Shown here one piece after another: positions 3,368 to 36,598 of a stretch of DNA of 40,482 nt. The DNA is from Escherichia phage vB_EcoP-22664UKE3-2. The first letter of the stretch is position 1. Each line of letters opens with the position of its first letter. Below the pieces are notes generated by a model, which had not been told where the DNA came from, searched no databases, and was given only the letters and a program-made list of their open reading frames with translations. Location: sequence record MZ234011.1. One strand, 5' to 3'. A program made the translations under genes and the position numbers.

Positions 3368-5899
3368 ATGTCCACGATTACACAATTCCCTTCAGGAAAC
3401 ACTCAGTACAGGATTGAGTTCGACTACCTAGCCAGAACGTTTGTTGTTGTTACGCTGGTGAATAGCTCTAACCCTACCCTGAACCGTGTACTGGAAGTTG
3501 GTCGAGATTACCGATTCCTTAATCCAACGATGATTGAGATGTTGGTTGACCAATCAGGTTTCGACATAGTTCGTATTCACCGTCAGACTGGAACTGACTT
3601 AGTGGTAGATTTCAGGAATGGCTCAGTGTTGACAGCTAGTGACCTGACCAATTCAGAGCTTCAGGCTATCCATATTGCAGAAGAAGGTCGAGACCAAACG
3701 GTTGACTTAGCGAAGGAATATGCCGATGCTGCTGGTAGCTCTGCTGGCAACGCTAAGGATAGCGAGGACGAAGCACGCCGAATCGCTGCGAGTATCAGGG
3801 AAGCTGGTCTAATTGGCTATATTACCCGTCGCTCCTTCGAGAAAGGCTACAACGTTACAACATGGAGCGAGGTCCTGCTATGGGAAGAGGATGGTGATTA
3901 TTACCGCTGGGATGGTACGCTTCCAAAGAACGTTCCTGCTGGTTCAACTCCTGAAACTTCCGGTGGGATTGGATTAGGTGCGTGGGTTAGTGTTGGTGAT
4001 GCTGCTTTAAGAAGTCAGATTTCAAACCCGGAAGGGGCAATACTCTACCCGGAATTGCAGATGGCAAGATGGCGTGATGAGGGTGATGTTCGAGGCTGGG
4101 GTGCTAAAGGGGATGGTGTAACAGATAGTACGGAGAATATAGCTGCTTCACTAAATTCTCAAAAAGCTGTCGTAGCATCAGAAGGTGTATTCTCTAGTTC
4201 TGGTATTAATAGTAATTACTGTAACTTAGACGGTAGAGGTAGTGGCGTGCTAAGTCACCGTTCCAGTACAGGTAACTACTTAGTATTTAACAATCCACGT
4301 ACAGGTCGCTTAAGTAATATTACGGTAGAAAGTAATAAGGCGACTGATACAACTCAGGGACATCAGGTATCTCTTGCCGGTGGAAGTGATGTTACTGTAA
4401 GTGACGTTAACTTCTCAAACGTTAAAGGTACTGGTTTCAGTTTAATCGCATACCCTAATGATGCGCCACCTGATGGACTTATGATTAAAGGCATTCGAGG
4501 TAGCTATTCCGGATATGCTACTAATAAGGTAGCAGGATGCGTACTTGCTGACTCATCAGTTAACTCCCTCATAGATAACGTCATTGCTAAGAACTACCCT
4601 CAGTTCGGAGCAGTAGAGTTGAAAGGTACAGCCCGTTACAACATAGTAAGTAATGTTATAGGGGCAGATTGCCAGCATGTAACTTACAACGGCACTGAAG
4701 GGCCAATAGCTCCTTCTAATAACCTTATCAAGGGGGTGATGGCTAATAACCCTAAGTATGCAGCGGTTGTTGCAGGCAAAGGAAGTACGAACTTAATCTC
4801 AGACGTGCTCGTAGATTACTCAACTTCTGATGCTAGGCAGGCTCATGGTGTTACCGTAGAAGGGTCTGATAACGTCATAAATAATGTGCTTATGTCAGGA
4901 TGTGATGCTACTAACTCTTTAGAACAAGGGCAGACTGCTACAATTGCACGCTTTATAGGTACAGCTAATAACAACTATGCGTCTGTATTTCCTAGCTACA
5001 GTGCTACAGGTGTTATTACTTTCGAATCCGGCTCTACCCGTAACTTCGTAGAGGTAAAGCACCCTGGAAGGAGGAACGACCTTCTCAGTTCTGCTAGTAC
5101 TATTGACGGTGCAGCTACTATTGACGGCACTAATAATAGTAACGTAGTGCACGCACCCGCCTTAGGGCAGTACATAGGTAGTATGTCAGGTAGGTTCGAA
5201 TGGCGGATTAAGTCCATGTCACTCCCTTCAGGCGTTCTTACTTCTGCTGATAAGTACAGAATGCTTGGGGATGGTGCTGTGTCATTAGCTGTAGGTGGTG
5301 GTGCATCTTCTCAAGTTCGACTATTTACTTCTGATGGTACTTCTCGGGGAGTATCACTCACCAACGGTAACGTGCGTCTTCCTACCAGTAGCACAGGTTA
5401 TTTGCAGTTAGGTTCTGATGCAATGACCCCAGATAGTACTAATACATACGCATTAGGTTCCGCAAGTAGAGCATGGTCTGGCGGTTTTACTCAATCAGCC
5501 TTCACTGTTGTCTCAGATGCTAGGGATAAAACAGAGCCTCTTAATATCTCAGATGCTTTACTGGATGCTTGGTCTGAAGTTGACTTTGTGCAGTTTCAGT
5601 ACTTGGACCGAATTGAGGAGAAGGGTGCAGACTCAGCTAGATGGCACTTCGGCATCATCGCTCAGCGAGCTAAGGAGGCCTTCGAACGTCACGGTATAGA
5701 TGCACATCGCTATGGCTTCCTGTGCTTCGACAATTGGGATGATGTATACGAGGAAGATGCCAATGGCTCTCGTAAACTGATTACACCAGCAGGTTCCCGC
5801 TACGGTATTCGTTACGAGGAAGTACTGATATTAGAGGCTGCGTTGATGCGGCGTACTATTAAGCGTATGCAGGAAGCATTAGCTGTTATGTCTAAGTGA
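3368..5899 (+). CDS. Tail fibre / tailspike (gp17-like): T7-type N-terminal adaptor + pectate-lyase-like beta-helix + C-terminal intramolecular chaperone (peptidase S74-like)
   Basis: N-terminal ~150 aa (YRIEFDYLARTFVVVTL...VDFRNGSVLTASDL...IHIAEEGRD) resembles the T7 gp17 N-domain; WGAKGDGVTDSTENIAA is a pectate-lyase-superfamily motif; C-terminus has SDARDK (Ser/Lys at i, i+5) followed by a chaperone-like domain; RBS AAGGAGG upstream. Confidence 0.85.
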   Translation: MSTITQFPSGNTQYRIEFDYLARTFVVVTLVNSSNPTLNRVLEVGRDYRFLNPTMIEMLVDQSGFDIVRIHRQTGTDLVVDFRNGSVLTASDLTNSELQAIHIAEEGRDQTVDLAKEYADAAGSSAGNAKDSEDEARRIAASIREAGLIGYITRRSFEKGYNVTTWSEVLLWEEDGDYYRWDGTLPKNVPAGSTPETSGGIGLGAWVSVGDAALRSQISNPEGAILYPELQMARWRDEGDVRGWGAKGDGVTDSTENIAASLNSQKAVVASEGVFSSSGINSNYCNLDGRGSGVLSHRSSTGNYLVFNNPRTGRLSNITVESNKATDTTQGHQVSLAGGSDVTVSDVNFSNVKGTGFSLIAYPNDAPPDGLMIKGIRGSYSGYATNKVAGCVLADSSVNSLIDNVIAKNYPQFGAVELKGTARYNIVSNVIGADCQHVTYNGTEGPIAPSNNLIKGVMANNPKYAAVVAGKGSTNLISDVLVDYSTSDARQAHGVTVEGSDNVINNVLMSGCDATNSLEQGQTATIARFIGTANNNYASVFPSYSATGVITFESGSTRNFVEVKHPGRRNDLLSSASTIDGAATIDGTNNSNVVHAPALGQYIGSMSGRFEWRIKSMSLPSGVLTSADKYRMLGDGAVSLAVGGGASSQVRLFTSDGTSRGVSLTNGNVRLPTSSTGYLQLGSDAMTPDSTNTYALGSASRAWSGGFTQSAFTVVSDARDKTEPLNISDALLDAWSEVDFVQFQYLDRIEEKGADSARWHFGIIAQRAKEAFERHGIDAHRYGFLCFDNWDDVYEEDANGSRKLITPAGSRYGIRYEEVLILEAALMRRTIKRMQEALAVMSK

Positions 5900-9287: not shown

Positions 9288-9336
9288 TAACTATAGGCGA
9301 AAACTGAATTAATACGCGGTTAGTAACCTATAGTTA
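9288..9336 (+). promoter_or_regulatory. Inverted repeat TAACTATAGG ... CCTATAGTTA (10-bp arms, 29-nt spacer) downstream of terminase
   Basis: Arms are exact reverse complements; lies in the non-coding right-end region. Confidence 0.5.
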
Positions 9337-9372: not shown

Positions 9373-9395
9373 ACTTAACTATCACTATAGGGAAG
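9373..9395 (+). promoter_or_regulatory. Phage RNAP promoter (CTTAACTATCACTATAGGGAAGA), phiOR-like position after gene 19
   Basis: Full match to the promoter core; position corresponds to T7 phiOR. Confidence 0.6.
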
Positions 9396-9573: not shown

Positions 9574-9747
9574 TATGGCAAAGACCAAAGCTGTACTTAA
9601 AGCTCTGGCGACCAATCGAGCTACATACAGGTTTCTTGCTGCTGTTCTACTTGCTGCTGGCGTTACTGCTGGAAGTCAGTGGGTCGGGTGGGTCGGGTGG
9701 GTCGGGTGGGTCGAGACTCTCGTATGTACTCTGGTCTCTCAGTGTAA
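9574..9747 (+). CDS. Small Cys-rich ORF (57 aa) containing an in-frame tandem repeat (VGR x4); possible gene 19.5 analogue
   Basis: Manual translation MAKTKAVLKSSGDQSSYIQVSCCCSTCCWRYCWKSVGRVGRVGRVGRDSRMYSGLSV; RBS CAGGAGG about 10 nt upstream. May be non-coding. Confidence 0.25.
9681..9713 (+). repeat. Tandem repeat, 9-bp unit GGGTCGGGT x ~3.7
   Basis: Directly visible: gggtcgggtgggtcgggtgggtcgggtgggtcg. Confidence 0.85.
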
Positions 9748-9980
9748 TTAACGCAATCATGGTAACGATTCATGAGCGGAAGACCTAAGGTCAGTACGTG
9801 GATAAAGACTCACTCTACTGACCTTAGCTACTGTAGTCAAGGACTTTAGGTAACACCTTAAGAGAAGCTCACTTAGGGTCATCCTACTTATTGGTCTATC
9901 CTAGTGTCGCCTGACCTACGGTCCTTGACCTACAGTGGCTGTGGTCTACAGTAGTGACGATGAGTTTTGGACCAAAAGTT

Positions 9981-17076: not shown

Positions 17077-18164
17077 TGACAACTATCAAAACTAACCCTC
17101 ACCGCGCTGTAGATTACTCTGAGTCTGGAATTAAGAAGGCACTGGAAGCAGCCGGGTCTCTGGAAGCTGAAGTGAAGTACGATGGTGTGCGCCTGAACCT
17201 CCTGGTACTGCGTGAAGGTGAGACCTACTGGCTTAGCCGCGAGTCGAAACCTCTACCAGCCTTGGAGTGGATGAACTCTGAGTTAGGTAATGCGTGGACC
17301 CAAGCTGACTGGCGATGGTTCCTGCGTCAATCCGGCTACGAAGGTGTGGGCATGATGATTGATGGCGAGGTCATGGTCAAAGGTGTAGACTTCAACACCT
17401 CCTCAGGTCTCATCCGAACGAAGTGGCTCAAGCCTAACAACGAGGAGTTCGCTGAATACTATTCGCCGGCGACTGGTGGAAAGAAGCTCCCGTTCTGGGG
17501 ATCCCGGTCACGACTTCAGGTTGTGGTATATGGCGTTGTCGATATGACAACCATAGCAGACCCGAAAGCAGAAGGTCCTATCCATAGCGTAACCCGCCTG
17601 AAGGCTGAAGCTATCGTCCCTCTCCTCCAGAAATACTTCCCGGAAATCGACTGGGTTCTGTCTGAGTCACACACGGTCTATGACCTTGAGTCGCTCAACT
17701 CCCTGTACGAACAGAAGCGTCTGGAAGGACATGAGGGTCTGGTAGTCAAGGACCCACTGGGTAAGTACAAGCGTGGCAAGAAGTCTGGCATGTGGAAAAT
17801 GAAGCCTGAGGAGACCATCGACGGGACCGTGTGTGGCCTCGTGTGGGGGACTCCTGGTAAGGCTAACGAAGGTAAGGTCATCGGCTTTGAGGTTCTACTG
17901 GAGGATGGCATGGTGGTCAACGCCTGTGGTCTGACTGAAGAACAGAAGGACGAGTTTACGGCTAAGGTCAAGGAGGACACGCTTGCTGCGGTTGGCATCT
18001 TTGCGCCGTACGGCATTGGTGGTAACGAACCTTGCTTCGATAACCCATACGAAGGCTGGCAGTGTGAAGTCCTCTTCATGGAGAGGTTCCCTGATGGCTC
18101 CCTTCGTCACCCCAGCTTCAAGTGCTGGCGTGGAACCGAAGACAACCCAACGGTGAAGTCATGA
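17076..18164 (+). CDS. ATP-dependent DNA ligase (T7 gp1.3-like)
   Basis: IKTNP...EVKYDGVRLN (adenylation KxDG motif)...EGHEGLVVKDP...KRGKKSGMWKMKPE...SLRHPSF parallels T7 ligase; start chosen at the ATG overlapping the gp1.2 stop (the track ORF begins at 17061). Confidence 0.95.
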   Translation: MTTIKTNPHRAVDYSESGIKKALEAAGSLEAEVKYDGVRLNLLVLREGETYWLSRESKPLPALEWMNSELGNAWTQADWRWFLRQSGYEGVGMMIDGEVMVKGVDFNTSSGLIRTKWLKPNNEEFAEYYSPATGGKKLPFWGSRSRLQVVVYGVVDMTTIADPKAEGPIHSVTRLKAEAIVPLLQKYFPEIDWVLSESHTVYDLESLNSLYEQKRLEGHEGLVVKDPLGKYKRGKKSGMWKMKPEETIDGTVCGLVWGTPGKANEGKVIGFEVLLEDGMVVNACGLTEEQKDEFTAKVKEDTLAAVGIFAPYGIGGNEPCFDNPYEGWQCEVLFMERFPDGSLRHPSFKCWRGTEDNPTVKS

Positions 18165-19214: not shown

Positions 19215-19369
19215 CTGACGTAGAGAAGAAGTACATCGTGGAGCTTGAGGGTCGCATTCAGTCCTTCGAGGTTCCGGTGTACGCAAAGTCTCTTGAAGAG
19301 GCTACCCTGAAGTCCCAAGAGTATGAGGACGCTGGGTTTGTGGTCGGACGGATTCGCCCTGAGACCTAA
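19211..19369 (+). CDS. gp2-like inhibitor of host RNA polymerase (52 aa)
   Basis: Manual translation ...[35 protein letters not shown] matches T7 gp2 ([34 protein letters not shown]). Confidence 0.7.
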
Positions 19370-19387
19370 ACTATCACTGTAGGACAG
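19365..19387 (+). promoter_or_regulatory. Variant phage promoter (CTAAACTATCACTGTAGGACAG) upstream of gene 2.5
   Basis: Promoter core with A to G at -3; may be weaker. Confidence 0.4.
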
Positions 19388-19426
19388 ACGTCCAGTTCGT
19401 AACTTTAAATTAGGAGATTTACACCA

Positions 19427-23840: not shown

Positions 23841-26012
23841 ATGTTTGACCTTAAGAGTATCTGGGGTTCTGACATCGAGACCAACGGTCTCCTTGATACA
23901 GTCTCCCAGTTTCACTGTGGGGTCCTGATTAACGCCGAGTCGAATGAGACCCTTAAGTATGGGGTAGCTCCGATGGTCGGTATCGTCGGCGGCTTCAAAG
24001 AGTATGTTCATAAAGTGGAAGAGATTGCCGCATCACCTGATGGTATGCTGGTATTCCATAACGGTATCAACTATGACGTCCCGGCTATAGACAAGCTGAA
24101 GCGTTTGTACTTTGGGAAACGCTTTAACTTCCCGAAACATAAGATGATTGATACCTTGGTGCTGGGACGCTTGATGTATCCAAACATTAAGTTCTCAGAC
24201 ATGGGCGCGGTGAAAGCTGGTCGTCTGCCACCTAAGATGATGGGACGCCAGTCTCTTGAGGCTTGGGGCTATCGTCTCGGTGAGATGAAAGGTGAGTACA
24301 AACACGATTACGTTGCCAAGTGCAAGGCTGAAGGTATCGAATATAAGGCTGGGGACGAATGGTTGTTCCCGTCTCAGGAGATGCTGGACTATAACGTTCA
24401 AGACGTTGTGGTCACACTGGCGTTGTTCAAGAAGTTCCTGACTGACAAGTATTACTTCCAGTCTGAACAGTTCGCTTTCGACCAGATTTATGCGTTGCGT
24501 CTGGAACATGATGCTGCGTGGACCTGTGCGAAGATGGAGCGTAATGGCTATCCGATGAACACCGAGATGGTCGAAGGCTTATATCGTGAACTCACTGTCA
24601 AACGAGCAGAGTTGCTGGACAAGCTGCGTTCGACTTTCGGTAGCTGGTACGCACCAAAGGGAGGCAAGGAGTTCTTCAGGCATCCACGGACAGGTAAGGA
24701 CCTTCCGAAGTATCCGAGGGTCGTGTATCCTAAGGTCGGTGGCATCTTTAAGAAGCCGAAGAACAAAGCTCAACGCTTAGGTCTTGAACCTTGTGAACGC
24801 GATACGCGAGACACGATGGAAGGAGCACCATTCACGCCAATCACTTACGTTGAGTTTAATCCGGGAAGCGGAGACCACTTAGCGAAAGTCCTGATGGAGC
24901 GTGGCTGGGAGCCTGTTGACTTCACTGACACCGGGAAACCTGTAGTCGATGACGAGACGTTGGAACACGTTAAGTTACCAGACGCAGAGGCTCAGGCTTG
25001 CGTAGAGCTGGTCCGTGAGTATCTGGTAGTCCAGAAGCGCATCGGTCAGGCGGCTGAAGGTAAGAACGCATGGTTGAAACTTGTAGGTCCAGACGGACGT
25101 ATGCACGGCTCAATAAACCCATGCGGGGCAGTAACCGGACGTGCGACCCATAGTTCACCAAACATGGCTCAGGTCCCGGCTAACGGTGCTCCATATGGTG
25201 AGACTTGCCGTGGTGCTTTCGGTGCAGCGTGGAACAAGAAGGACGGTAAGCCAGACCCTTGGATTCAAGTTGGTGTGGATGCCTCAGGTCTTGAGCTTCG
25301 TTGTCTTGGGAACAGAGCGGCTCCGTTTGATGGTGGTGCATATGCGAAGACTGTGGTAGAAGGTGACATCCACTGGGCCAACGCAGTAAACGCTGGGTTA
25401 GCACCTAACGTCCAACGCGATAAGTCTAACCACGACCATGAGGCTTTCCGTAACAACGCTAAGACGTTCATCTACGCGTTCCTGTATGGTGCAGGGGCCG
25501 CTAAGATTGGACTGATAGTAGGCGGTGGTAAGAAGGAAGGTTCAGCGCTCATGAAGAAATTCATTGAGGGTACACCAGCTATCAAGGACCTCAGGGAAGC
25601 TGTAAGTAATACGTTAATCTCAGACTCTAAGTGGGTGGACGGAGAGAACATCGTTAAATGGAAACGCCGTTGGTTGCGTGGACTCGATGGTCGCCGTATA
25701 CACATACGGTCTCCACACTCAGCACTGAACGCATTACTTCAAGGTGATGGTGCGGTAGTATGTAAGCACTGGATTGTTGAGACTGAACGTATGCTCGAAG
25801 AGGCCGGGTATGTCCACGGCTGGGAAGGAGACTTTGCGTACATGGCATGGGTCCACGACGAATTGCAGATTGCAGCTCGGAACATGGAGATTGCCGAAGA
25901 TATTCGCAGGATTGCTCAACTTGCTATGCGTAAGGTGGGTGAGTTCTATAACTTTAAATGTGTCCTTGATACTGAAGGTAAGCTTGGACCAACTTGGAAG
26001 GAGTGTCACTAA
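23841..26012 (+). CDS. DNA polymerase (T7 gp5-like, family A)
   Basis: 723 aa; exonuclease motif DIETNG, FHNG..YDVPA, polymerase motifs (DASGLELRC, KTFIYAFLYGAG, WVHDE), C-terminus DTEGKLGPTWKECH, all parallel to T7 DNAP. Confidence 0.97.
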   Translation: MFDLKSIWGSDIETNGLLDTVSQFHCGVLINAESNETLKYGVAPMVGIVGGFKEYVHKVEEIAASPDGMLVFHNGINYDVPAIDKLKRLYFGKRFNFPKHKMIDTLVLGRLMYPNIKFSDMGAVKAGRLPPKMMGRQSLEAWGYRLGEMKGEYKHDYVAKCKAEGIEYKAGDEWLFPSQEMLDYNVQDVVVTLALFKKFLTDKYYFQSEQFAFDQIYALRLEHDAAWTCAKMERNGYPMNTEMVEGLYRELTVKRAELLDKLRSTFGSWYAPKGGKEFFRHPRTGKDLPKYPRVVYPKVGGIFKKPKNKAQRLGLEPCERDTRDTMEGAPFTPITYVEFNPGSGDHLAKVLMERGWEPVDFTDTGKPVVDDETLEHVKLPDAEAQACVELVREYLVVQKRIGQAAEGKNAWLKLVGPDGRMHGSINPCGAVTGRATHSSPNMAQVPANGAPYGETCRGAFGAAWNKKDGKPDPWIQVGVDASGLELRCLGNRAAPFDGGAYAKTVVEGDIHWANAVNAGLAPNVQRDKSNHDHEAFRNNAKTFIYAFLYGAGAAKIGLIVGGGKKEGSALMKKFIEGTPAIKDLREAVSNTLISDSKWVDGENIVKWKRRWLRGLDGRRIHIRSPHSALNALLQGDGAVVCKHWIVETERMLEEAGYVHGWEGDFAYMAWVHDELQIAARNMEIAEDIRRIAQLAMRKVGEFYNFKCVLDTEGKLGPTWKECH

Positions 26013-26296
26013 TGGCTATTACTAAACGTATTCGTGTGAGTTTTGATCTGAAGATGGTTGCTAACTCAAAGGAAGAAGATACCATGTGTCGCCAACTGGC
26101 TGATATGACTAAAGCCTACGCTGAGGGTGAGAAGCTGGATGGTCTTCAGTTGGCTCTGGTCAAAACCGCAATCGAGTCAGGCCCTGAGTCTGCCCTTGAA
26201 ATTGCCCTCAAGAAGACCATCAAGGAGAAGCTGGTAGACGACTTTGGTTATGGCCAGTTCGGAGTATCTAACCTGCGATTCGAGGTCAAGCAATGA
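26012..26296 (+). CDS. gp5.5-like protein
   Basis: MAITKRIRVSFDL...GLQLALVKTAIESGPES resembles T7 gp5.5 as I recall it; ATG overlaps the polymerase stop (TAATG). Confidence 0.55.
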   Translation: MAITKRIRVSFDLKMVANSKEEDTMCRQLADMTKAYAEGEKLDGLQLALVKTAIESGPESALEIALKKTIKEKLVDDFGYGQFGVSNLRFEVKQ

Positions 26297-27392: not shown

Positions 27393-27491
27393 ACTGCATG
27401 TACAAGTGGTTCGGGTCGAACAACCGCCCTAAACACTGAGTCTAACCGATAGTCATATCCTATCAATCCAACAGTCATCCATAGGTGAAAT

Positions 27492-27514
27492 ACTAAACTA
27501 TCACTATAGGGACT
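27492..27514 (+). promoter_or_regulatory. Phage RNAP promoter (ACTAAACTATCACTATAGGGACT), phi6.5-like
   Basis: Full promoter core. Confidence 0.6.
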
Positions 27515-27575
27515 TTAGGACCTAAGATATGACTATAAGATAGACTTTAGTCTTAACTTAAAGAGGAGATTCAAG

Positions 27576-30406: not shown

Positions 30407-31291
30407 ATGTCTCAATCAGTTTATGCCGAGTTCGGCGTTAGCTCTAATGCAATCACTGGTTCCGTTGAGGACCTGAACGAACACCAGAAGTCTATGCTTG
30501 AACAGGACGTAGCTGTTCGTGATGGCGATGACGCTATTACCTTCAAGCAACTGGAAGCCGAAAACGAAGAGGCGACCGAAGAAGACGAGAACGTCGAAGA
30601 GACGGAGGGTGCTGAAGACAACGAGTCCGATGACGAAGAGTCTGAGACCGATGGTGAGCAGCCTGAGTTCATTGAACTGGGTGATGCACCGAAAGAGCTG
30701 ACCGAAAGTGTCACCGCTCTGGATGAAAACGAAGCTGCATTTGACGACATGGTGTCTTCCGCTGTAGAAGCTGGCAAGGTCACTGCTGATGAAATTACCG
30801 CTATCAAGGCTGAATACGCCAAGGACGGTAAGCTGTCTGACGCATCCTACGCTAAGTTGCAGGAAGCAGGTTACACCAAGCGTTTCGTAGATTCGTTTGT
30901 CCGTGGTCAGGAAGCTCTGGCTGAACAGTATGCTGCTGGAGTGGTTCGCTACGCTGGTGGAGCTGAACAGTTTAACCGCATTCTGTCTCACCTTGAGTCA
31001 ACCGACCCGTCAACTCGTGAGGCACTGGAAGCTGCTATCGTTCGTAAGGACATTTCGACTACCAAAGCTCTGCTGAATCTGGCTGGCAAGACTCTGGGTA
31101 AAGCTGTTGGTGTTAAACCTCAGCGTACCATCACCACTCAGGCTAAACCTGTGGTCGCACCTAAGGCTCCTCAGACCGAAGCATTCAGCTCCAAGGCTGA
31201 CATGATTAAGGCTATGAGTGACCCGCGATACCTTCGTGACGCTAAGTACACGATGGAAGTACGCGCTAAGGTAGCTGCCTCAAGCCTGTAG
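30407..31291 (+). CDS. Capsid assembly scaffolding protein (T7 gp9-like)
   Basis: Acidic protein; VYAEFGVSSNA...VAVRDGDDAI...SYAKLQEAGYTKRFVDSFVRGQEALAEQY...MIKAMSDPRY parallels T7 gp9; RBS AAGGAG 9 nt upstream (the track ORF starts earlier at 30371). Confidence 0.9.
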   Translation: MSQSVYAEFGVSSNAITGSVEDLNEHQKSMLEQDVAVRDGDDAITFKQLEAENEEATEEDENVEETEGAEDNESDDEESETDGEQPEFIELGDAPKELTESVTALDENEAAFDDMVSSAVEAGKVTADEITAIKAEYAKDGKLSDASYAKLQEAGYTKRFVDSFVRGQEALAEQYAAGVVRYAGGAEQFNRILSHLESTDPSTREALEAAIVRKDISTTKALLNLAGKTLGKAVGVKPQRTITTQAKPVVAPKAPQTEAFSSKADMIKAMSDPRYLRDAKYTMEVRAKVAASSL

Positions 31292-31292
31292 G

Positions 31293-31315
31293 ACTAAACT
31301 ATCACTATAGGGAGA
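31293..31315 (+). promoter_or_regulatory. Phage RNAP promoter upstream of major capsid gene (CTAAACTATCACTATAGGGAGACC), phi10-like
   Basis: Closest match to the strong-promoter core CACTATAGGGAGA. Confidence 0.7.
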
Positions 31316-31417
31316 CCAAGAGACAGACTCAAGGTTTCCCTATTACTTCAGTCCATACGGATTGGGCGTACAGTAAGTAATAAACTTTATCTTTCAATTG
31401 AATAGGAGAATTATCAT

Positions 31418-32467
31418 ATGGCAAACGTTCCGGGTCAGAAAGTTGGTACAGACCAAGGTAAAGGCAAATCTGGTTCCGACGCTCTGGCGTTGTTCCTGAA
31501 GGTCTTTGCTGGTGAAGTCCTGACCGCATTCACTCGCCGCTCTGTAACTGCTGACAAGCATATTGTCCGTACCATTCAGAACGGTAAGTCTGCTCAGTTC
31601 CCGGTCATGGGACGCACCTCTGGGGTGTATCTGGCTCCGGGTGAGCGACTGTCCGATAAGCGTAAAGGTATCAAACATACCGAGAAAGTGATTACCATTG
31701 ATGGTCTGCTGACTGCCGATGTGATGATTTTCGACATTGAAGACGCGATGAACCACTATGACGTGGCTGGCGAGTACTCCAACCAGTTGGGCGAAGCTCT
31801 GGCTATCGCTGCCGATGGTGCGGTACTGGCTGAGATGGCTATTCTGTGTAACCTACCGGCTGCATCTGATGAAAACATCGCTGGTCTTGGCAAAGCGTCT
31901 GTGCTGGAAGTTGGTACTAAAGCAGACCTGAACACTCCGGCTAAGCTGGGTGAAGCAATCATCGGTCAACTGACCATTGCTCGTGCGAAGCTGACATCCA
32001 ACTACGTTCCTGCTGGCGACCGTTACTTCTACACCACGCCGGACAACTACTCTGCAATCCTCGCGGCTCTGATGCCGAACGCTGCTAACTATGCTGCGCT
32101 GATTGACCCAGAGACTGGTAACATCCGTAACGTAATGGGCTTCGTGGTTGTTGAAGTTCCACACTTGACTCAGGGTGGTGCTGGGGAAACTCGTGGTGCC
32201 GATGGTATCACTATTGCGACTGGTCAGAAGCACGCCTTCCCAGCTACTGCTACTGGTGATGTTAAAGTTGCTCTGGACAACGTTGTGGGCCTGTTCTCTC
32301 ACCGTTCTGCTGTAGGTACTGTTAAGCTGCGTGACTTGGCGCTGGAACGTGACCGTGACGTCGATGCTCAGGGCGACCTGATTGTTGGTAAGTACGCTAT
32401 GGGTCACGGTGGTCTGCGTCCAGAAGCAGCAGGCGCACTGGTTTTCACAGCGGCGTCAGCGGGTTAA
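31418..32467 (+). CDS. Major capsid protein 10A (T7 gp10A-like)
   Basis: TDQGKGKSGSDALALFLKVFAGEVLTAFTRRSV...KSAQFPVMGRT...KHTEKVITIDGLLTADVMIFDIEDAMNHYDV...ALMPNAANYAALIDPE...HRSAVGTVKLRDLALER...KYAMGHGGLRPEAAGA is co-linear with T7 10A. Confidence 0.97.
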   Translation: MANVPGQKVGTDQGKGKSGSDALALFLKVFAGEVLTAFTRRSVTADKHIVRTIQNGKSAQFPVMGRTSGVYLAPGERLSDKRKGIKHTEKVITIDGLLTADVMIFDIEDAMNHYDVAGEYSNQLGEALAIAADGAVLAEMAILCNLPAASDENIAGLGKASVLEVGTKADLNTPAKLGEAIIGQLTIARAKLTSNYVPAGDRYFYTTPDNYSAILAALMPNAANYAALIDPETGNIRNVMGFVVVEVPHLTQGGAGETRGADGITIATGQKHAFPATATGDVKVALDNVVGLFSHRSAVGTVKLRDLALERDRDVDAQGDLIVGKYAMGHGGLRPEAAGALVFTAASAG

Positions 32468-32730
32468 CGACCTTTAAGGCCCTCTCTACAGAGGGTCCTA
32501 CCTTAGAGACGTATAGTTCTACGGTGGGAACCAGCCTGAAGGTTGACTTCCCTGAGCTTTCAGATGTGACCGATTGGTCGCTGCTTGAGGTGACTACGCC
32601 TGATGGTGTTAGCTACTCCCGTAGAACCAACAGTCTCTACTTCAAGGCCACCTCTGGCGTGGAAGGTCTGGTGATTGTTGGGTATGACGGTACGCCTGTG
32701 CGTTCCTTCAACGTATCTTTCACAAACTAA
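31418..32730 (+). CDS. Minor capsid protein 10B via programmed -1 frameshift at slippery GGTTTTC (32440-32446)
   Basis: Slippery heptamer G GTT TTC lies 8 codons before the 10A stop; the -1 frame is open from there to a stop at 32728-32730, adding about 95 aa. Confidence 0.6.
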
Positions 32731-32734
32731 TTGA

Positions 32735-32776
32735 AACCCCTTGGGTGCCTTCGGGTGCTTGAGGGGTTTTTTTTTG
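32735..32776 (+). terminator. Rho-independent terminator (Tphi-like) after the capsid gene
   Basis: 13-bp stem CCCCTTGGGTGCC/GGTGCTTGAGGGG with UUCG tetraloop followed by T9; resembles T7 Tphi. Confidence 0.8.
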
Positions 32777-32790
32777 CTTAAGGAGGGACT

Positions 32791-32886
32791 ATGTTCCTTA
32801 TTTACACAGGGTTAGCACTATTCGTCTTATTCTGGGCGTACCTGCTGCCCAGCTCACCGTCTAGCCCTATGACCGCTAAGGAGTAA
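32791..32886 (+). CDS. Small hydrophobic ORF (31 aa) between the terminator and gene 11
   Basis: Strong RBS AAGGAGGG 5 nt upstream; MFLIYTGLALFVLFWAYLLPSSPSSPMTAKE; its stop overlaps the gene 11 RBS. Confidence 0.25.
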   Translation: MFLIYTGLALFVLFWAYLLPSSPSSPMTAKE

Positions 32887-32890
32887 ACCT

Positions 32891-33457
32891 ATGTCTCAAT
32901 ACATTCCACTTAATGCTAACGATGACTTAGATGCCATCAACGATATGTTAGCTGCTATTGGTGAACCAGCAGTCCTACAGCTTGACGAAGGTAACGCTGA
33001 CGTCTCGAACGCTCAACGTATCCTGCATCGTGTTAATCGTCAGGTCCAAGCTAAAGGCTGGAACTTTAACATCAACGAAGCTGCTGTCCTGACGCCTGAT
33101 GTCCAAGACAACAGGATTCGATTCCTGCCGTCTTACCTTCGGGTCATGACTGCTGGGGCCACCAGCTACTACAGCAACATGGGTGGATACCTATACGACC
33201 TGTCCACTCAGTCAACCACTTTCACCGACCCTATAACGGTAGAGCTTGTTGAGATGAAACCGTTCTCGGAGATGCCTGTGGTATTCAGGGACTACATCGT
33301 TACCAAGGCCAGCCGTGAGTTCAACGCTAAGTTCTTCGGTAGCCCAGAGTCTGAACTGTACCTTCGTGAGCAGGAATCAGAACTCTATCAGCAGGTCATG
33401 GAATACGAGATGGACACTGGTCGCTACAACATGATGTCCGACATCGGGAGGGACTAA
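32891..33457 (+). CDS. Tail tubular protein A (T7 gp11-like)
   Basis: DAINDMLAAIGEP...NAQRILHRVNRQVQAKGWNFNINE...FRDYIVTKASREFNAKFFGSPE...MEYEMDTGRYNM parallels T7 gp11. Confidence 0.95.
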   Translation: MSQYIPLNANDDLDAINDMLAAIGEPAVLQLDEGNADVSNAQRILHRVNRQVQAKGWNFNINEAAVLTPDVQDNRIRFLPSYLRVMTAGATSYYSNMGGYLYDLSTQSTTFTDPITVELVEMKPFSEMPVVFRDYIVTKASREFNAKFFGSPESELYLREQESELYQQVMEYEMDTGRYNMMSDIGRD

Positions 33458-33684
33458 TGGCTAGTCACAACCTGAAGATTCACCGCCAGCACTTTGGTCC
33501 GGTACAACTAGGTCTAAAGACAGCAGAGCTGAGACTTAACGACCGGGACTTTAAGGTTGGCGACTGGCTTATCCTGAATGAGTGGGACAACGGGTATACT
33601 GGACAACAGGTAGCACGTAAGGTTGTCCACATTGCTGACGTTGGGGACATCGCTGATGGATACGTCATAATGAGTATGATTTAA
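33457..33684 (+). CDS. Small ASCH/PUA-like (DUF3850-type) protein inserted between gp11 and gp12
   Basis: 75 aa; pattern LKIHRQHFGPVQLGLKTAELRLNDRDFKVGDWLILNEW resembles small ASCH-fold proteins from memory; T7 has no gene here. Confidence 0.55.
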   Translation: MASHNLKIHRQHFGPVQLGLKTAELRLNDRDFKVGDWLILNEWDNGYTGQQVARKVVHIADVGDIADGYVIMSMI

Positions 33685-33693
33685 GGAGGGCAT

Positions 33694-36051
33694 ATGCCAC
33701 TAATTACACAATCAATCAAGAACCTTAAAGGTGGCATTAGCCAACAGCCTGACATACTGAGGTTCTCAGACCAAGGCGAGGAGCAAGTTAACTGCTGGTC
33801 ATCAGAGAGTGATGGCCTCCAGAAGCGTCCACCTACAGTCTTCAAGCGACGTCTTAACATCGACGTTGGGAGCAACCCTAAGTTCCACCTGATTAACCGT
33901 GATGAGCAGGAGCAGTATTACATCGTGTTCAACGGGTCCAACATTCAGGTAGTTGACTTGAGTGGTAATCAATACTCAGTTTCCGGTGCGGTAGATTACG
34001 TTAAGTCGTCCAACCCGCGAGATGACATACGTGTCGTTACCGTTGCAGACTATACGTTCATCGTGAACCGTAAGGTTGTCGTTAAAGGTGGAAGCGAGAA
34101 GTCACACTCTGGTTATAATCGTAAAGCTCGTGCTTTAATTAACCTGCGTGGTGGACAGTATGGTCGCACCCTTAAGGTAGGAATCAACGGAGGCGTTAAG
34201 GTTTCGCATAAGCTGCCAGCAGGTAATGATGCCGAGAATGACCCACCTAAGGTGGATGCTCAGGCCATCGGTGCAGCTCTGAGAGACCTTCTTGTTGCTG
34301 CCTATCCTACCTTCACGTTCGACCTTGGGTCTGGCTTCCTGCTAATCACAGCTCCTTCAGGGACCGACATTAACTCAGTGGAGACTGAGGATGGATACGC
34401 TAACCAGCTAATCAGCCCAGTCCTCGACACGGTGCAAACAATCTCTAAGTTGCCTCTTGCGGCTCCAAATGGGTACATCATTAAGATTCAAGGTGAGACC
34501 AACAGTAGCGCCGATGAGTATTACGTGATGTATGACTCCAACACTAAGACGTGGAAGGAGACAGTAGAGCCGGGAGTGGTCACTGGGTTTGATAACACCA
34601 CAATGCCACATGCTCTGGTTAGACAATCTGACGGCTCCTTTGAGTTCAAGACTCTGGACTGGTCCAAGCGTGGTGCTGGTAATGATGACACAAACCCTAT
34701 GCCTAGCTTCGTGAATGCCACGATTAACGATGTGTTCTTCTACAGGAACAGGCTGGGGTTCTTGTCAGGTGAGAACGTAATCATGAGCCGTTCAGCCAGC
34801 TACTTTGCGTTCTTCCCTAAGAGTGTGGCGACACTGAGTGATGATGACCCTATTGATGTAGCTGTAAGTCACCCTCGAATCTCAATCCTTAAGTATGCCG
34901 TTCCGTTTAGCGAGCAGCTACTACTTTGGTCTGATGAGGTTCAGTTCGTGATGACAAGCTCTGGGGTGCTTACCTCGAAGTCTATCCAGCTTGATGTAGG
35001 CTCAGAGTTTGCCTTAGGAGATAATGCCAGACCGTTCGCTGTAGGACGCTCAGTCTTCTTCTCAGCGCCTCGTGGGTCATTCACCAGCATTAAGCGATAC
35101 TTCGCTGTAGCAGATGTGTCTGACGTGAAGGATGTCGATGATACCACTGGTCACGTACTGTCCTATATCCCTAACGGGGTGTTTGACATTCAAGGTACAG
35201 GGACTGAGAACTACATCTGCGTCAACTCTACAGGTGCATACAACCGAATCTACATCTATAAGTTCTTGTTTAAGGACGGCGTACAGCTTCAAGCCTCTTG
35301 GTCGCACTGGGAGTTCCCTAAAGCTGATAAGATTCTGGCGTCTGCTTCGATTGGCTCTACCATGTTCATTGTTCGTCAGCACCAAGGCGGCGCGGACCTT
35401 GAGCACCTTAAGTTTATCAAGGAGGCAACCGACTTTCCGTTAGAGCCATATAGACTCCACGTTGACTCCAAGGTGTCTATGGTAATACCAATTGGCTCAT
35501 ACAACGTTGACACCTATAAGACTACGGTTGACATTGGTTCTGCTTATGGTGGAAACGCTCCGTCTCCCGGTCGGTACTATCTTATTGACAGTCAGGGTGC
35601 CTACGTGGACCTTGGTGAATTGACAGACATCTCAACTGTGGCTATACTAAATGGCGATTGGTCAGGACGTACAGTGTTCATAGGACGGTCTTATCTGATG
35701 TCCTACAAGTTCTCACGGTTCCTGATTAAGATTGAAGACGATAGCGGCACTCAGTCTGAAGACACTGGTCGTCTACAACTTCGTCGGGCTTGGGTCAACT
35801 ACAAGGACACTGGCGCTCTTAGACTCATTGTCAGAAACGGTGAGCGGGAGTTCGTGAATACCTTTAATGGGTACACCCTTGGTCAGCAGACCATTGGGAC
35901 TACCAACATTGGTGACGGTCAGTATCGCTTCGCTATGAATGGTAACGCATTAACCACGAGTCTAACCTTAGAGTCAGATTATCCTACCCCAGTGTCCATC
36001 GTTGGCTGTGGCTGGGAGGCGTCATACGCTAAGAAAGCTCGTTCCGTCTAA
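33694..36051 (+). CDS. Tail tubular protein B (T7 gp12-like)
   Basis: ITQSIKNLKGGISQQPDILRFSDQG...LQKRPP...HLINRDEQEQYY...MPHALVR...SFVNATINDVFFYRNRLGFLSGENVIMSR...LQLRRAWVNYKDTG...GCGWE is co-linear with T7 gp12. Confidence 0.97.
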   Translation: MPLITQSIKNLKGGISQQPDILRFSDQGEEQVNCWSSESDGLQKRPPTVFKRRLNIDVGSNPKFHLINRDEQEQYYIVFNGSNIQVVDLSGNQYSVSGAVDYVKSSNPRDDIRVVTVADYTFIVNRKVVVKGGSEKSHSGYNRKARALINLRGGQYGRTLKVGINGGVKVSHKLPAGNDAENDPPKVDAQAIGAALRDLLVAAYPTFTFDLGSGFLLITAPSGTDINSVETEDGYANQLISPVLDTVQTISKLPLAAPNGYIIKIQGETNSSADEYYVMYDSNTKTWKETVEPGVVTGFDNTTMPHALVRQSDGSFEFKTLDWSKRGAGNDDTNPMPSFVNATINDVFFYRNRLGFLSGENVIMSRSASYFAFFPKSVATLSDDDPIDVAVSHPRISILKYAVPFSEQLLLWSDEVQFVMTSSGVLTSKSIQLDVGSEFALGDNARPFAVGRSVFFSAPRGSFTSIKRYFAVADVSDVKDVDDTTGHVLSYIPNGVFDIQGTGTENYICVNSTGAYNRIYIYKFLFKDGVQLQASWSHWEFPKADKILASASIGSTMFIVRQHQGGADLEHLKFIKEATDFPLEPYRLHVDSKVSMVIPIGSYNVDTYKTTVDIGSAYGGNAPSPGRYYLIDSQGAYVDLGELTDISTVAILNGDWSGRTVFIGRSYLMSYKFSRFLIKIEDDSGTQSEDTGRLQLRRAWVNYKDTGALRLIVRNGEREFVNTFNGYTLGQQTIGTTNIGDGQYRFAMNGNALTTSLTLESDYPTPVSIVGCGWEASYAKKARSV

Positions 36052-36075
36052 CTTATTGAAGGGCCTATAGATTTA

Positions 36076-36098
36076 CCTTAACTATCACTATAGGGACT
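36076..36098 (+). promoter_or_regulatory. Phage RNAP promoter (CCTTAACTATCACTATAGGGACT), phi13-like, nested inside an inverted repeat
   Basis: Full promoter core; flanked by AGGGCCTATAG (36060-36070) and CTATAGGCCCT (36097-36107). Confidence 0.6.
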
Positions 36099-36127
36099 AT
36101 AGGCCCTTAAGGTTATAAGGAGACTTT

Positions 36128-36598
36128 ATGTATATTCGCAAGGCTACGGAACCAGATGTCCACTACTTTCTGTGGCATCTTTCAGCAGATGATGTTAATG
36201 AATGCAAAGCAAACTACGGGTCAACCGTGGGTCTCTCAGAGAGACTGCTTAAGCACCTATCTCCATCATCTGTGGTTTTAACGAACGGTGTAGGTGAAGT
36301 GTTTGCCTATGGTGGAAACCAAGGGGATAACGTATGGTTCTTGACTTCTGGTCTGGTCTACAAGCTGGGGCCTAAAGAGAAGCGAGAGTTCATAAAGTGT
36401 ATCTCTGAGTACAGGGACTTAATGTTAGACCAATACGGGACCATCTGGAACTACGTGTGGTCAGGCAATAAGTCTCACATTAAATTCTTGAAGTTGCTTG
36501 GCGCTAAATTCCATGATGATTGGACTGTAAGCCCGGTAACTGGTGAGCGTTTTCAACTATTCACTATCTCTAAGGAGGACGTATGTGCGAGCCAGTAA
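36128..36598 (+). CDS. Internal virion protein A (gp13-like, by position)
   Basis: 156-aa ORF between the phi13-like promoter and gp14; RBS AAGGAGA upstream. Confidence 0.6.
   Translation: MYIRKATEPDVHYFLWHLSADDVNECKANYGSTVGLSERLLKHLSPSSVVLTNGVGEVFAYGGNQGDNVWFLTSGLVYKLGPKEKREFIKCISEYRDLMLDQYGTIWNYVWSGNKSHIKFLKLLGAKFHDDWTVSPVTGERFQLFTISKEDVCASQ

Follow-up and report, generated by a model that had tools for sequence, protein, structure and literature searches.

A predicted RNA hairpin around the phi13 promoter of a K1F-like phage probably corresponds to R13, an RNase III site of the T7 group

Results

Organization of the gene 12-13 region

The DNA analysed here (hereafter the window, meaning the whole stretch of 40,482 bp) is that of a K1F-like Kayfunavirus. 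With respect to K1F it is circularly permuted by ~10.7 kb, which places gene 12 at 33.7 kb instead of 22.9 kb; its positions 36040-36135 match K1F and many other records at 100% identity, and the phi13 region has at least 99% identity in 80 of 220 records. On the plus strand, gene 12 (33694-36051; tail tubular protein B, from its open reading frame and the K1F and EcoDS1 annotation) is followed by gene 13, an open reading frame at 36128-36598 with its ATG at 36128 and the Shine-Dalgarno sequence AAGGAG at 36117-36122. Its product is an internal virion protein (the label in K1F is '13.0 internal virion protein'), which shares 47% identity with gp13 of T7 and likewise with gp13 of T3. Between the two genes lies the phage RNA polymerase promoter phi13, CCTTAACTATCACTATAGGGACT (36076-36098 on the plus strand, -17 to +6), with transcription starting at G36093. 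An identical sequence is labelled 'promoter phi13' in the EcoDS1 record, and the promoter matches the consensus of the eleven phage promoters in the window, all of them on the plus strand; the 15-nt promoter core occurs at these 11 plus-strand sites, against 1.08 expected by chance. Gene 12 has no promoter of its own: a promoter scan found none between phi10 (start 31310) and phi13 (31311-36080), and gene 10 is followed by a Tphi-like terminator (32733-32770, plus strand), composed of a 17-pair stem and a T-run, whose equivalent is annotated in EcoDS1.

A perfect inverted repeat encloses phi13

An initial annotation of this DNA had described a late promoter nested in a perfect 11-bp inverted repeat, formed by the 11-mers AGGGCCTATAG (36060-36070) and CTATAGGCCCT (36097-36107), both of which can be read directly from the sequence. 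This description was accurate and slightly understated the repeat, since one further pair (one base on each side) extends it to 12 perfect base pairs, AAGGGCCTATAG (36059-36070) and CTATAGGCCCTT (36097-36108), with 26 nt separating the arms. The nested promoter is likewise genuine, given that the spacer has the same sequence as phi13 of EcoDS1 and matches the ten other phage promoters of the window. Perfect 12-bp inverted repeats with loops of up to 60 nt occur twice in the whole window, against a mean of 0.09 in 200 dinucleotide shuffles (7.5% of the shuffles hold any such repeat); the mean for 11-mer inverted repeats in the same shuffles is 0.5. The repeat at phi13 is not a one-off, because it is conserved in relatives (see below). 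The other perfect 12-bp short-loop repeat, CTAAGGTCAGTA / TACTGACCTTAG (9785-9796 / 9816-9827, with a 19-nt loop), lies just past a small open reading frame (9575-9751), near the presumed right genome end, and this reading frame contains a perfect tandem repeat of its own (GTGGGTCGG x 3.9, at 9679-9713), which includes repeated GGGTC, a T7 primase recognition sequence.

Relative to the phi13 start, the 5' arm of the hairpin occupies positions -34 to -23 and the 3' arm positions +5 to +16 (both on the plus strand). The 5' arm is thus present only in read-through RNA coming from gene 12, and the 3' arm in read-through and phi13-initiated RNA alike, so that this geometry confirms the initial proposal that the former RNA carries both arms and the latter the 3' arm alone. 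Since genes 11 and 12 are promoterless and have the Tphi-like terminator upstream, their RNA can come only from read-through, and it crosses both arms.

Predicted RNA fold

As RNA, the segment 36040-36130 has a predicted folding energy of -27.8 kcal/mol (z = -3.24 in comparison with shuffles). The whole stacked structure, 36049-36115, accounts for -23.2 kcal/mol, and the 12-bp stem alone for -18.4 kcal/mol. In the minimum free energy (MFE) structure, the 12-bp stem stands on a 5-bp basal stem (UAACU 36049-36053 / GGUUA 36111-36115, plus strand), from which a 5/2-nt internal loop separates it; above it, a 5/1-nt internal loop leads to a 5-bp upper stem (CCUUA 36076-36080 / UAGGG 36091-36095, plus strand, weakly supported) capped by a 10-nt loop. 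The promoter lies in the apical part of the hairpin. Substrates of the E. coli RNase III comprise about two helical turns (~20 bp) of mostly double-stranded RNA, often with an internal loop. The pairs predicted here add up to 22 (12 + 5 + 5), with two internal loops; in the relatives, the uninterrupted stem is often of 9 bp and the upper stem is weak. Zhang and Nicholson are said to have found, in 1997, that the proximal and distal boxes beside the cleavage position of RNase III sites are free of disfavoured base pairs. An Rfam scan of 35800-36400 at permissive E-values placed no family at the site; its two matches elsewhere in that segment were at chance level (E = 1.7 and 6.8) and far below the gathering scores.

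A role of the hairpin in translational control was considered and rejected. The mean unpaired probability of the gene 13 Shine-Dalgarno sequence plus AUG is 0.46-0.47 whether the RNA reads through or starts at phi13, and three RNAs modelled as products of hypothetical cuts give 0.41-0.47.

Conservation within Kayfunavirus

For the within-genus comparison we used 18 distinct gene 12-13 spacers from Kayfunavirus-like contigs of IMG/VR. The initial annotation had proposed conservation in relatives as a check on the repeat, and the repeat is indeed kept: the 9-bp core GGCCTATAG/CTATAGGCC, as well as the entire stretch CACTATAGGGACTATAGGCCCTT, is invariant in all 18 spacers, and the arm core is unchanged even where the identity of gp13 is only 62-67%. 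In three of these relatives (L048, L053 and L055) the arms are identical despite a replaced promoter specificity region (-17 to -8), which means that the conservation of the arms is not a by-product of promoter recognition. The replacing segments, ACTATTACACCCTCACTATAGGGA and AATATTTAACACTCACTATAGGGA, are located ~30 nt upstream of gene 13 (these loci are on the same contigs as L018, L023 and L025) and, being different segments between unchanged arms, they imply that the polymerase/promoter specificity was swapped with the hairpin arms left untouched.

Outside the core the pairing is less uniform. Of the 18 distinct relatives, 12 cannot form the third pair of the stem (G36061:C36106), so that the 12-bp stem of the window stands at the long end of the range and the typical uninterrupted stem has 9 bp, a short length for RNase III if it is not prolonged by stacking of the flanking stems. 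In the basal stem 98.9% of the alignment cells are paired in the 18 relatives, five of which have a U-A to U-G change; in the upper stem 88.8% of the cells are paired, with no compensatory change, and relatives with a different promoter specificity region have lost this stem. The covariation test on the 18 distinct spacers found no compensatory change within Kayfunavirus (shuffles reach the observed values), and the set contains one A-U to G-U and one U-A to U-G change that keep the pairing on the plus strand only. The Kayfunavirus alignment alone neither supports nor refutes an RNA structure, the invariant 9-bp core being uninformative in this respect.

The arm pair is confined to this locus. 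Scanning IMG/VR for GGCCTATAG-N15-45-CTATAGGCC returned 27 contigs, 22 of which correspond to the same Kayfunavirus locus with its 26-nt spacer, the remaining five being unrelated sequences, such as collagen-like repeats. A dispersed motif is ruled out by this result, given that the arm pair with 26-nt spacing occurs in IMG/VR only at the Kayfunavirus-like gene 12-13 locus.

Conservation across the T7 group

A gp13 profile retrieved 79 T7-group loci. With the window added, these make 80 loci, whose gene 12-13 spacers comprise 64 distinct sequences. A helix encloses phi13 in every one of them (64/64), and the hairpin is conserved at this wider scale also. When the longest uninterrupted helix around phi13 is taken from each spacer, the median length is 12 bp; shuffled sequences give 7 bp on average and 9 bp at the 95th percentile. 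At least seven unrelated arm sequences or registers are in use (K1F-type, L051, L057, L058, T3-, T7- and K11-type). In the T7-, T3- and K11-type spacers, as in L051, the promoter core itself (approximately -8 to +7) serves as the 3' arm and pairs with an 'anti-promoter' 5' arm, for example GTCTCCCTGTGGTG; in the K1F-type spacers, in L057 (ACCCTATG/CATAGGGT) and in L058, the arms flank the promoter. The RNAalifold consensus of 21 T7-register sequences is a helix of 11 pairs, in which G-U prevails at two positions and both partners have changed in three pairs. Since a G-U pair corresponds to a C-A mismatch on the opposite strand, the T7-register helix is a structure of the plus-strand RNA and not a dyad of the DNA. 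T3-like and some K11-like phages have a poly-G run, variable in length, that separates phi13 from the ribosome site of gene 13 (T3 itself, L031, at 3497-3512; also L072 and L104).

An apparent shift of register by duplication of the promoter core

The window contains a 9-nt tandem repeat, ACTATAGGG|ACTATAGGC (36087-36104, plus strand, as read from the sequence), the second copy of which makes up most of the 3' arm, so that this arm probably arose as a second copy of the promoter core. Apparently, then, the 3' arm moved from the promoter core to positions +5 to +16 through a 9-nt tandem duplication of the core. Such a duplication, if it took place in an ancestor with the T7 register, would have given the 5' arm a second partner, located downstream of the first. 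In L051, a relative of the K1F-type group, the T7-type register is still present. In the window itself, the T7-type register (CCUAUAG 36064-36070 / CUAUAGG 36088-36094) is worth -6.6 kcal/mol, against -18.4 to -23.2 kcal/mol for the flanking register; given this weakness, the T7-type pairing was rejected as the structure of the site and can be at most a transient intermediate.

Similar arrangements elsewhere in the window

Other promoters of the window have comparable surroundings. A long imperfect hairpin (27439-27545), with an 11-bp core, ATAGTCATATC/GATATGACTAT (27449-27459 / 27526-27536), surrounds the phi6.5-type promoter (start 27509), which 29 MFE pairs enclose; by analogy with the R6.5 annotated around phi6.5 in T3, where the arms flank the whole promoter in the same manner, this hairpin is probably an R6.5 counterpart. 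Upstream of the promoter that starts at 19382 (AACTATCACTGTAGG), an 'anti-promoter' TTTGTGGT (19337-19344) pairs with the core, with 24 enclosing MFE pairs in 19310-19420, a segment that may be another promoter-associated processing hairpin. Short segments complementary to the core, CCTATAGT and CCTGTAG, are also found upstream of phiOR and phi10 (9327-9334 / 9384-9391 and 31285-31291 / 31305-31311, respectively), and anti-promoter segments seem to recur in this genome.

Discussion

The phi13 hairpin as a probable R13 site

In our view the inverted repeat, with phi13 embedded in it, is probably what corresponds in Kayfunavirus to R13, the RNase III processing site of other T7-group members. 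We favour this reading because the position and the layout match those of the sites annotated in T3 and phiYeO3-12: the gene 12 stop (36051), the hairpin (36059-36108), phi13 (36076-36098) and the gene 13 ATG (36128) follow each other as they do around R13 in these two phages. The same reading is favoured by the helix that encloses phi13 in all 64 spacers, by the plus-strand signal of the G-U pairs, by arms that stay identical where the specificity region has been replaced, by the read-through RNA that must exist, and by the parallel between the phi6.5 hairpin of the window and R6.5 of T3. In the T3 RefSeq record, the stem_loop at 25443-25480 ('RNase III recognition site R13') encloses the promoter phi13 (25457-25479), and in the phiYeO3-12 record a 'putative RNase III site R13' (26209-26246) encloses phi13 (26223-26245); both labels are curator calls, the latter being explicitly 'putative'. 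The records of T7 (RefSeq and V01146), phiA1122, K1F and EcoDS1 carry no RNase III site annotation. The phi13 region of T7 has a hairpin of 15+3 bp with z = -4.1, and the corresponding value for T3 is z = -4.7. Cleavage at the T7 site is placed a few nucleotides downstream of the phi13 start, which would fit the R13 reading. According to 10.1101/106799 and PMC6938266, T7 has an RNase III site beside the promoter that separates gene 12 from gene 13, and R13 is a weak site; the underlying data originate in Dunn & Studier 1983, cited in both articles, and PMC6938266 treats R13 as a cleavage site. Among the observations that count against the R13 reading are this weakness of T7 R13, the lack of compensatory change within Kayfunavirus, the stem pair broken in 12 of the 18 relatives, the weak upper stem, the lack of a matching Rfam family and the invariance of the arms, which is stricter than a plain hairpin would need.

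The processing mechanism that would follow from the R13 reading can be outlined as follows. Genes 11 and 12 would be transcribed by polymerases that start at phi6.5, phi9 or phi10 and read through Tphi, and the resulting RNA would fold into an irregular hairpin across 36049-36115. The host RNase III would then cut the double-stranded part, parting the gene 12 mRNA from that of gene 13 onward and leaving a 5' end presumably within ~10-15 nt of the phi13 start. RNA initiated at phi13 (G36093), having the 3' arm only, would form no hairpin and should escape cutting. With read-through RNA cut and phi13 RNA left uncut, gene 13 mRNAs with nearly the same leader would be produced by both routes. The initial annotation had suggested that the hairpin might process read-through transcripts, terminate them or mark a secondary replication origin; the first of these three possibilities gains support from the equivalent R13 annotations in T3 and phiYeO3-12 and from the T7 papers, and the other two fared badly, as discussed below.

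Alternative explanations

Several other explanations were weighed against processing at an R13 site. The plus-strand hairpin might act without RNase III, either as a stable 3'-end structure that shields the gene 11-12 read-through mRNA against 3' exonucleases or as an insulator of the gene 13 leader from upstream RNA, and its stability (-23.2 kcal/mol; z = -3.24), its conservation and its position immediately after the gene 12 stop are all compatible with this, as is the fact that R13 of T7 is only a weak cleavage site. We nevertheless consider such a role unlikely, given that, with neither an endonucleolytic cut nor a terminator, there would be no 3' end to protect, that the curated records of T3 and phiYeO3-12 name the equivalent element an RNase III site and that the predicted accessibility of the gene 13 ribosome site is 0.46-0.47 with or without the upstream arm. 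The repeat could, on the other hand, be a by-product of sequence history with little function, if the core duplication placed a second CTATAGG beside an older anti-promoter and the arrangement then persisted by descent or mosaic recombination. This would agree with the tandem repeat ACTATAGGG|ACTATAGGC at 36087-36104, with the lack of compensatory change within the genus and with the region being at least 99% identical in 80 of the 220 records; it is made improbable by the invariance of the arms despite gp13 identities of 62-67% and a replaced specificity segment, which argues for selection on the arms, and by the independent arm pairs that enclose phi13 in other genera. We attach very little weight to the idea that phi13-initiated mRNA pairs in trans with the 3' end of the gene 12 RNA (a 12-nt complement), as an intermolecular RNase III substrate coupling the messages of tail and core genes, or that the arms are recognised sequence-specifically by a phage or host factor. 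The former is conceivable because the 3' arm (+5 to +16) lies wholly in the transcribed leader of every phi13 mRNA, and the latter because both arms are strictly invariant, which is unusual for a plain hairpin.

The remaining explanations would place the function of the repeat in the DNA or in the polymerase. The primary origin of T7 is a promoter followed by a markedly AT-rich stretch. Around phi13 of this phage the flank has an A+T content of 62-65% and the flanking 60-nt windows a G+C of 0.35-0.42, that is, they are only mildly AT-rich. This composition weighs somewhat against a function at the DNA level, be it as a secondary origin of replication, as a cruciform or as a protein-binding dyad with phi13 at its centre, and so do the helices of the relatives, whose G-U pairs would be C-A mismatches in DNA or on the other strand, and the arm register, which shifts between genera while the hairpin stays. 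A perfect repeat could in principle extrude as a cruciform, and T7 phage promoters can act as secondary origins, phiOR and phi6.5 being the ones named in PMC8373140 (after Rabkin & Richardson 1988); according to the same paper, these origins need a phage promoter and not an inverted repeat. The proposed origin thus finds no repeat-specific support in this paper, which ties origins to the promoter, and with the mildly AT-rich flank and the G-U helix of the relatives we regard any DNA-level role as very improbable. That the repeat makes the phage RNA polymerase terminate or pause would likewise agree with a stable hairpin formed in read-through RNA only; this is, however, the explanation to which we give the least credence. 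The stem is followed by UUAAGGUUAUAAGG (tail UUAAGGUUAUAA) and not by a U-run, the loop has 26 nt, and the terminator scan is blank at 36059-36120, yet detects the Tphi-like terminator at 32733-32770, so that the proposed termination of read-through RNA is not supported. Moreover, genes 13-16 depend on phi13 alone as promoter, and the biology of the T7 group relies on read-through at this point.

Significance

The R13 reading adds little new biology: to nest a promoter in a hairpin of the RNase III type is an already described design of the T7 group, which the initial annotation had not recognised. The import of the reading is that this late-promoter design holds also in K1F-like phages. What is new is the Kayfunavirus instance, unannotated in the K1F and EcoDS1 records (which, at phi13, annotate the promoter only), with its shifted arm register. 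The apparent shift of the 3' arm to a duplicated copy of the core offers an example of a hairpin re-registered in evolution without being lost. With this design, mRNAs from read-through and those initiated locally would also come to have similar leaders. From a practical standpoint, when K1F-type phages are engineered or their promoters are reused as orthogonal parts, the flanks at -34 to -23 and +5 to +16 should be treated as a probable processing signal.

Comparison with known systems

Among the known systems, the secondary origins of T7 (phiOR and phi6.5) have a phage promoter in common with this site, and no inverted repeat enters their definition; phi13 differs from them in that it has no strongly AT-rich flank. 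Tphi, a class I intrinsic terminator for T7-type polymerases, is, like the phi13 hairpin, a stable RNA hairpin in late transcripts, with a small loop and a U-run, neither of which is found at phi13. R13 of T7 comes much closer to the site described here: both occupy the gap between genes 12 and 13, and both embed the promoter in a hairpin whose formation requires read-through RNA. In T7, the promoter core (-8 to +7) acts as the 3' arm and the helix contains G-U pairs, whereas here the 3' arm spans +5 to +16, the promoter lies between the arms and the 12 pairs are perfect; cleavage is documented for T7 R13, whereas the site of this phage is known from its sequence and predicted fold. The R13 sites of T3 and phiYeO3-12 also have the promoter within a stem-loop directly after gene 12, but in the T7-type register, as a 38-nt stem-loop with a 2x2 internal loop, sharing only the promoter core with the K1F-type arms. 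The stem-loop R6.5 of T3 (17135-17206), which encloses phi6.5 (17160-17182), belongs to another locus and has longer, imperfect arms, but these arms flank a complete promoter, just as they do at phi13 in this phage.
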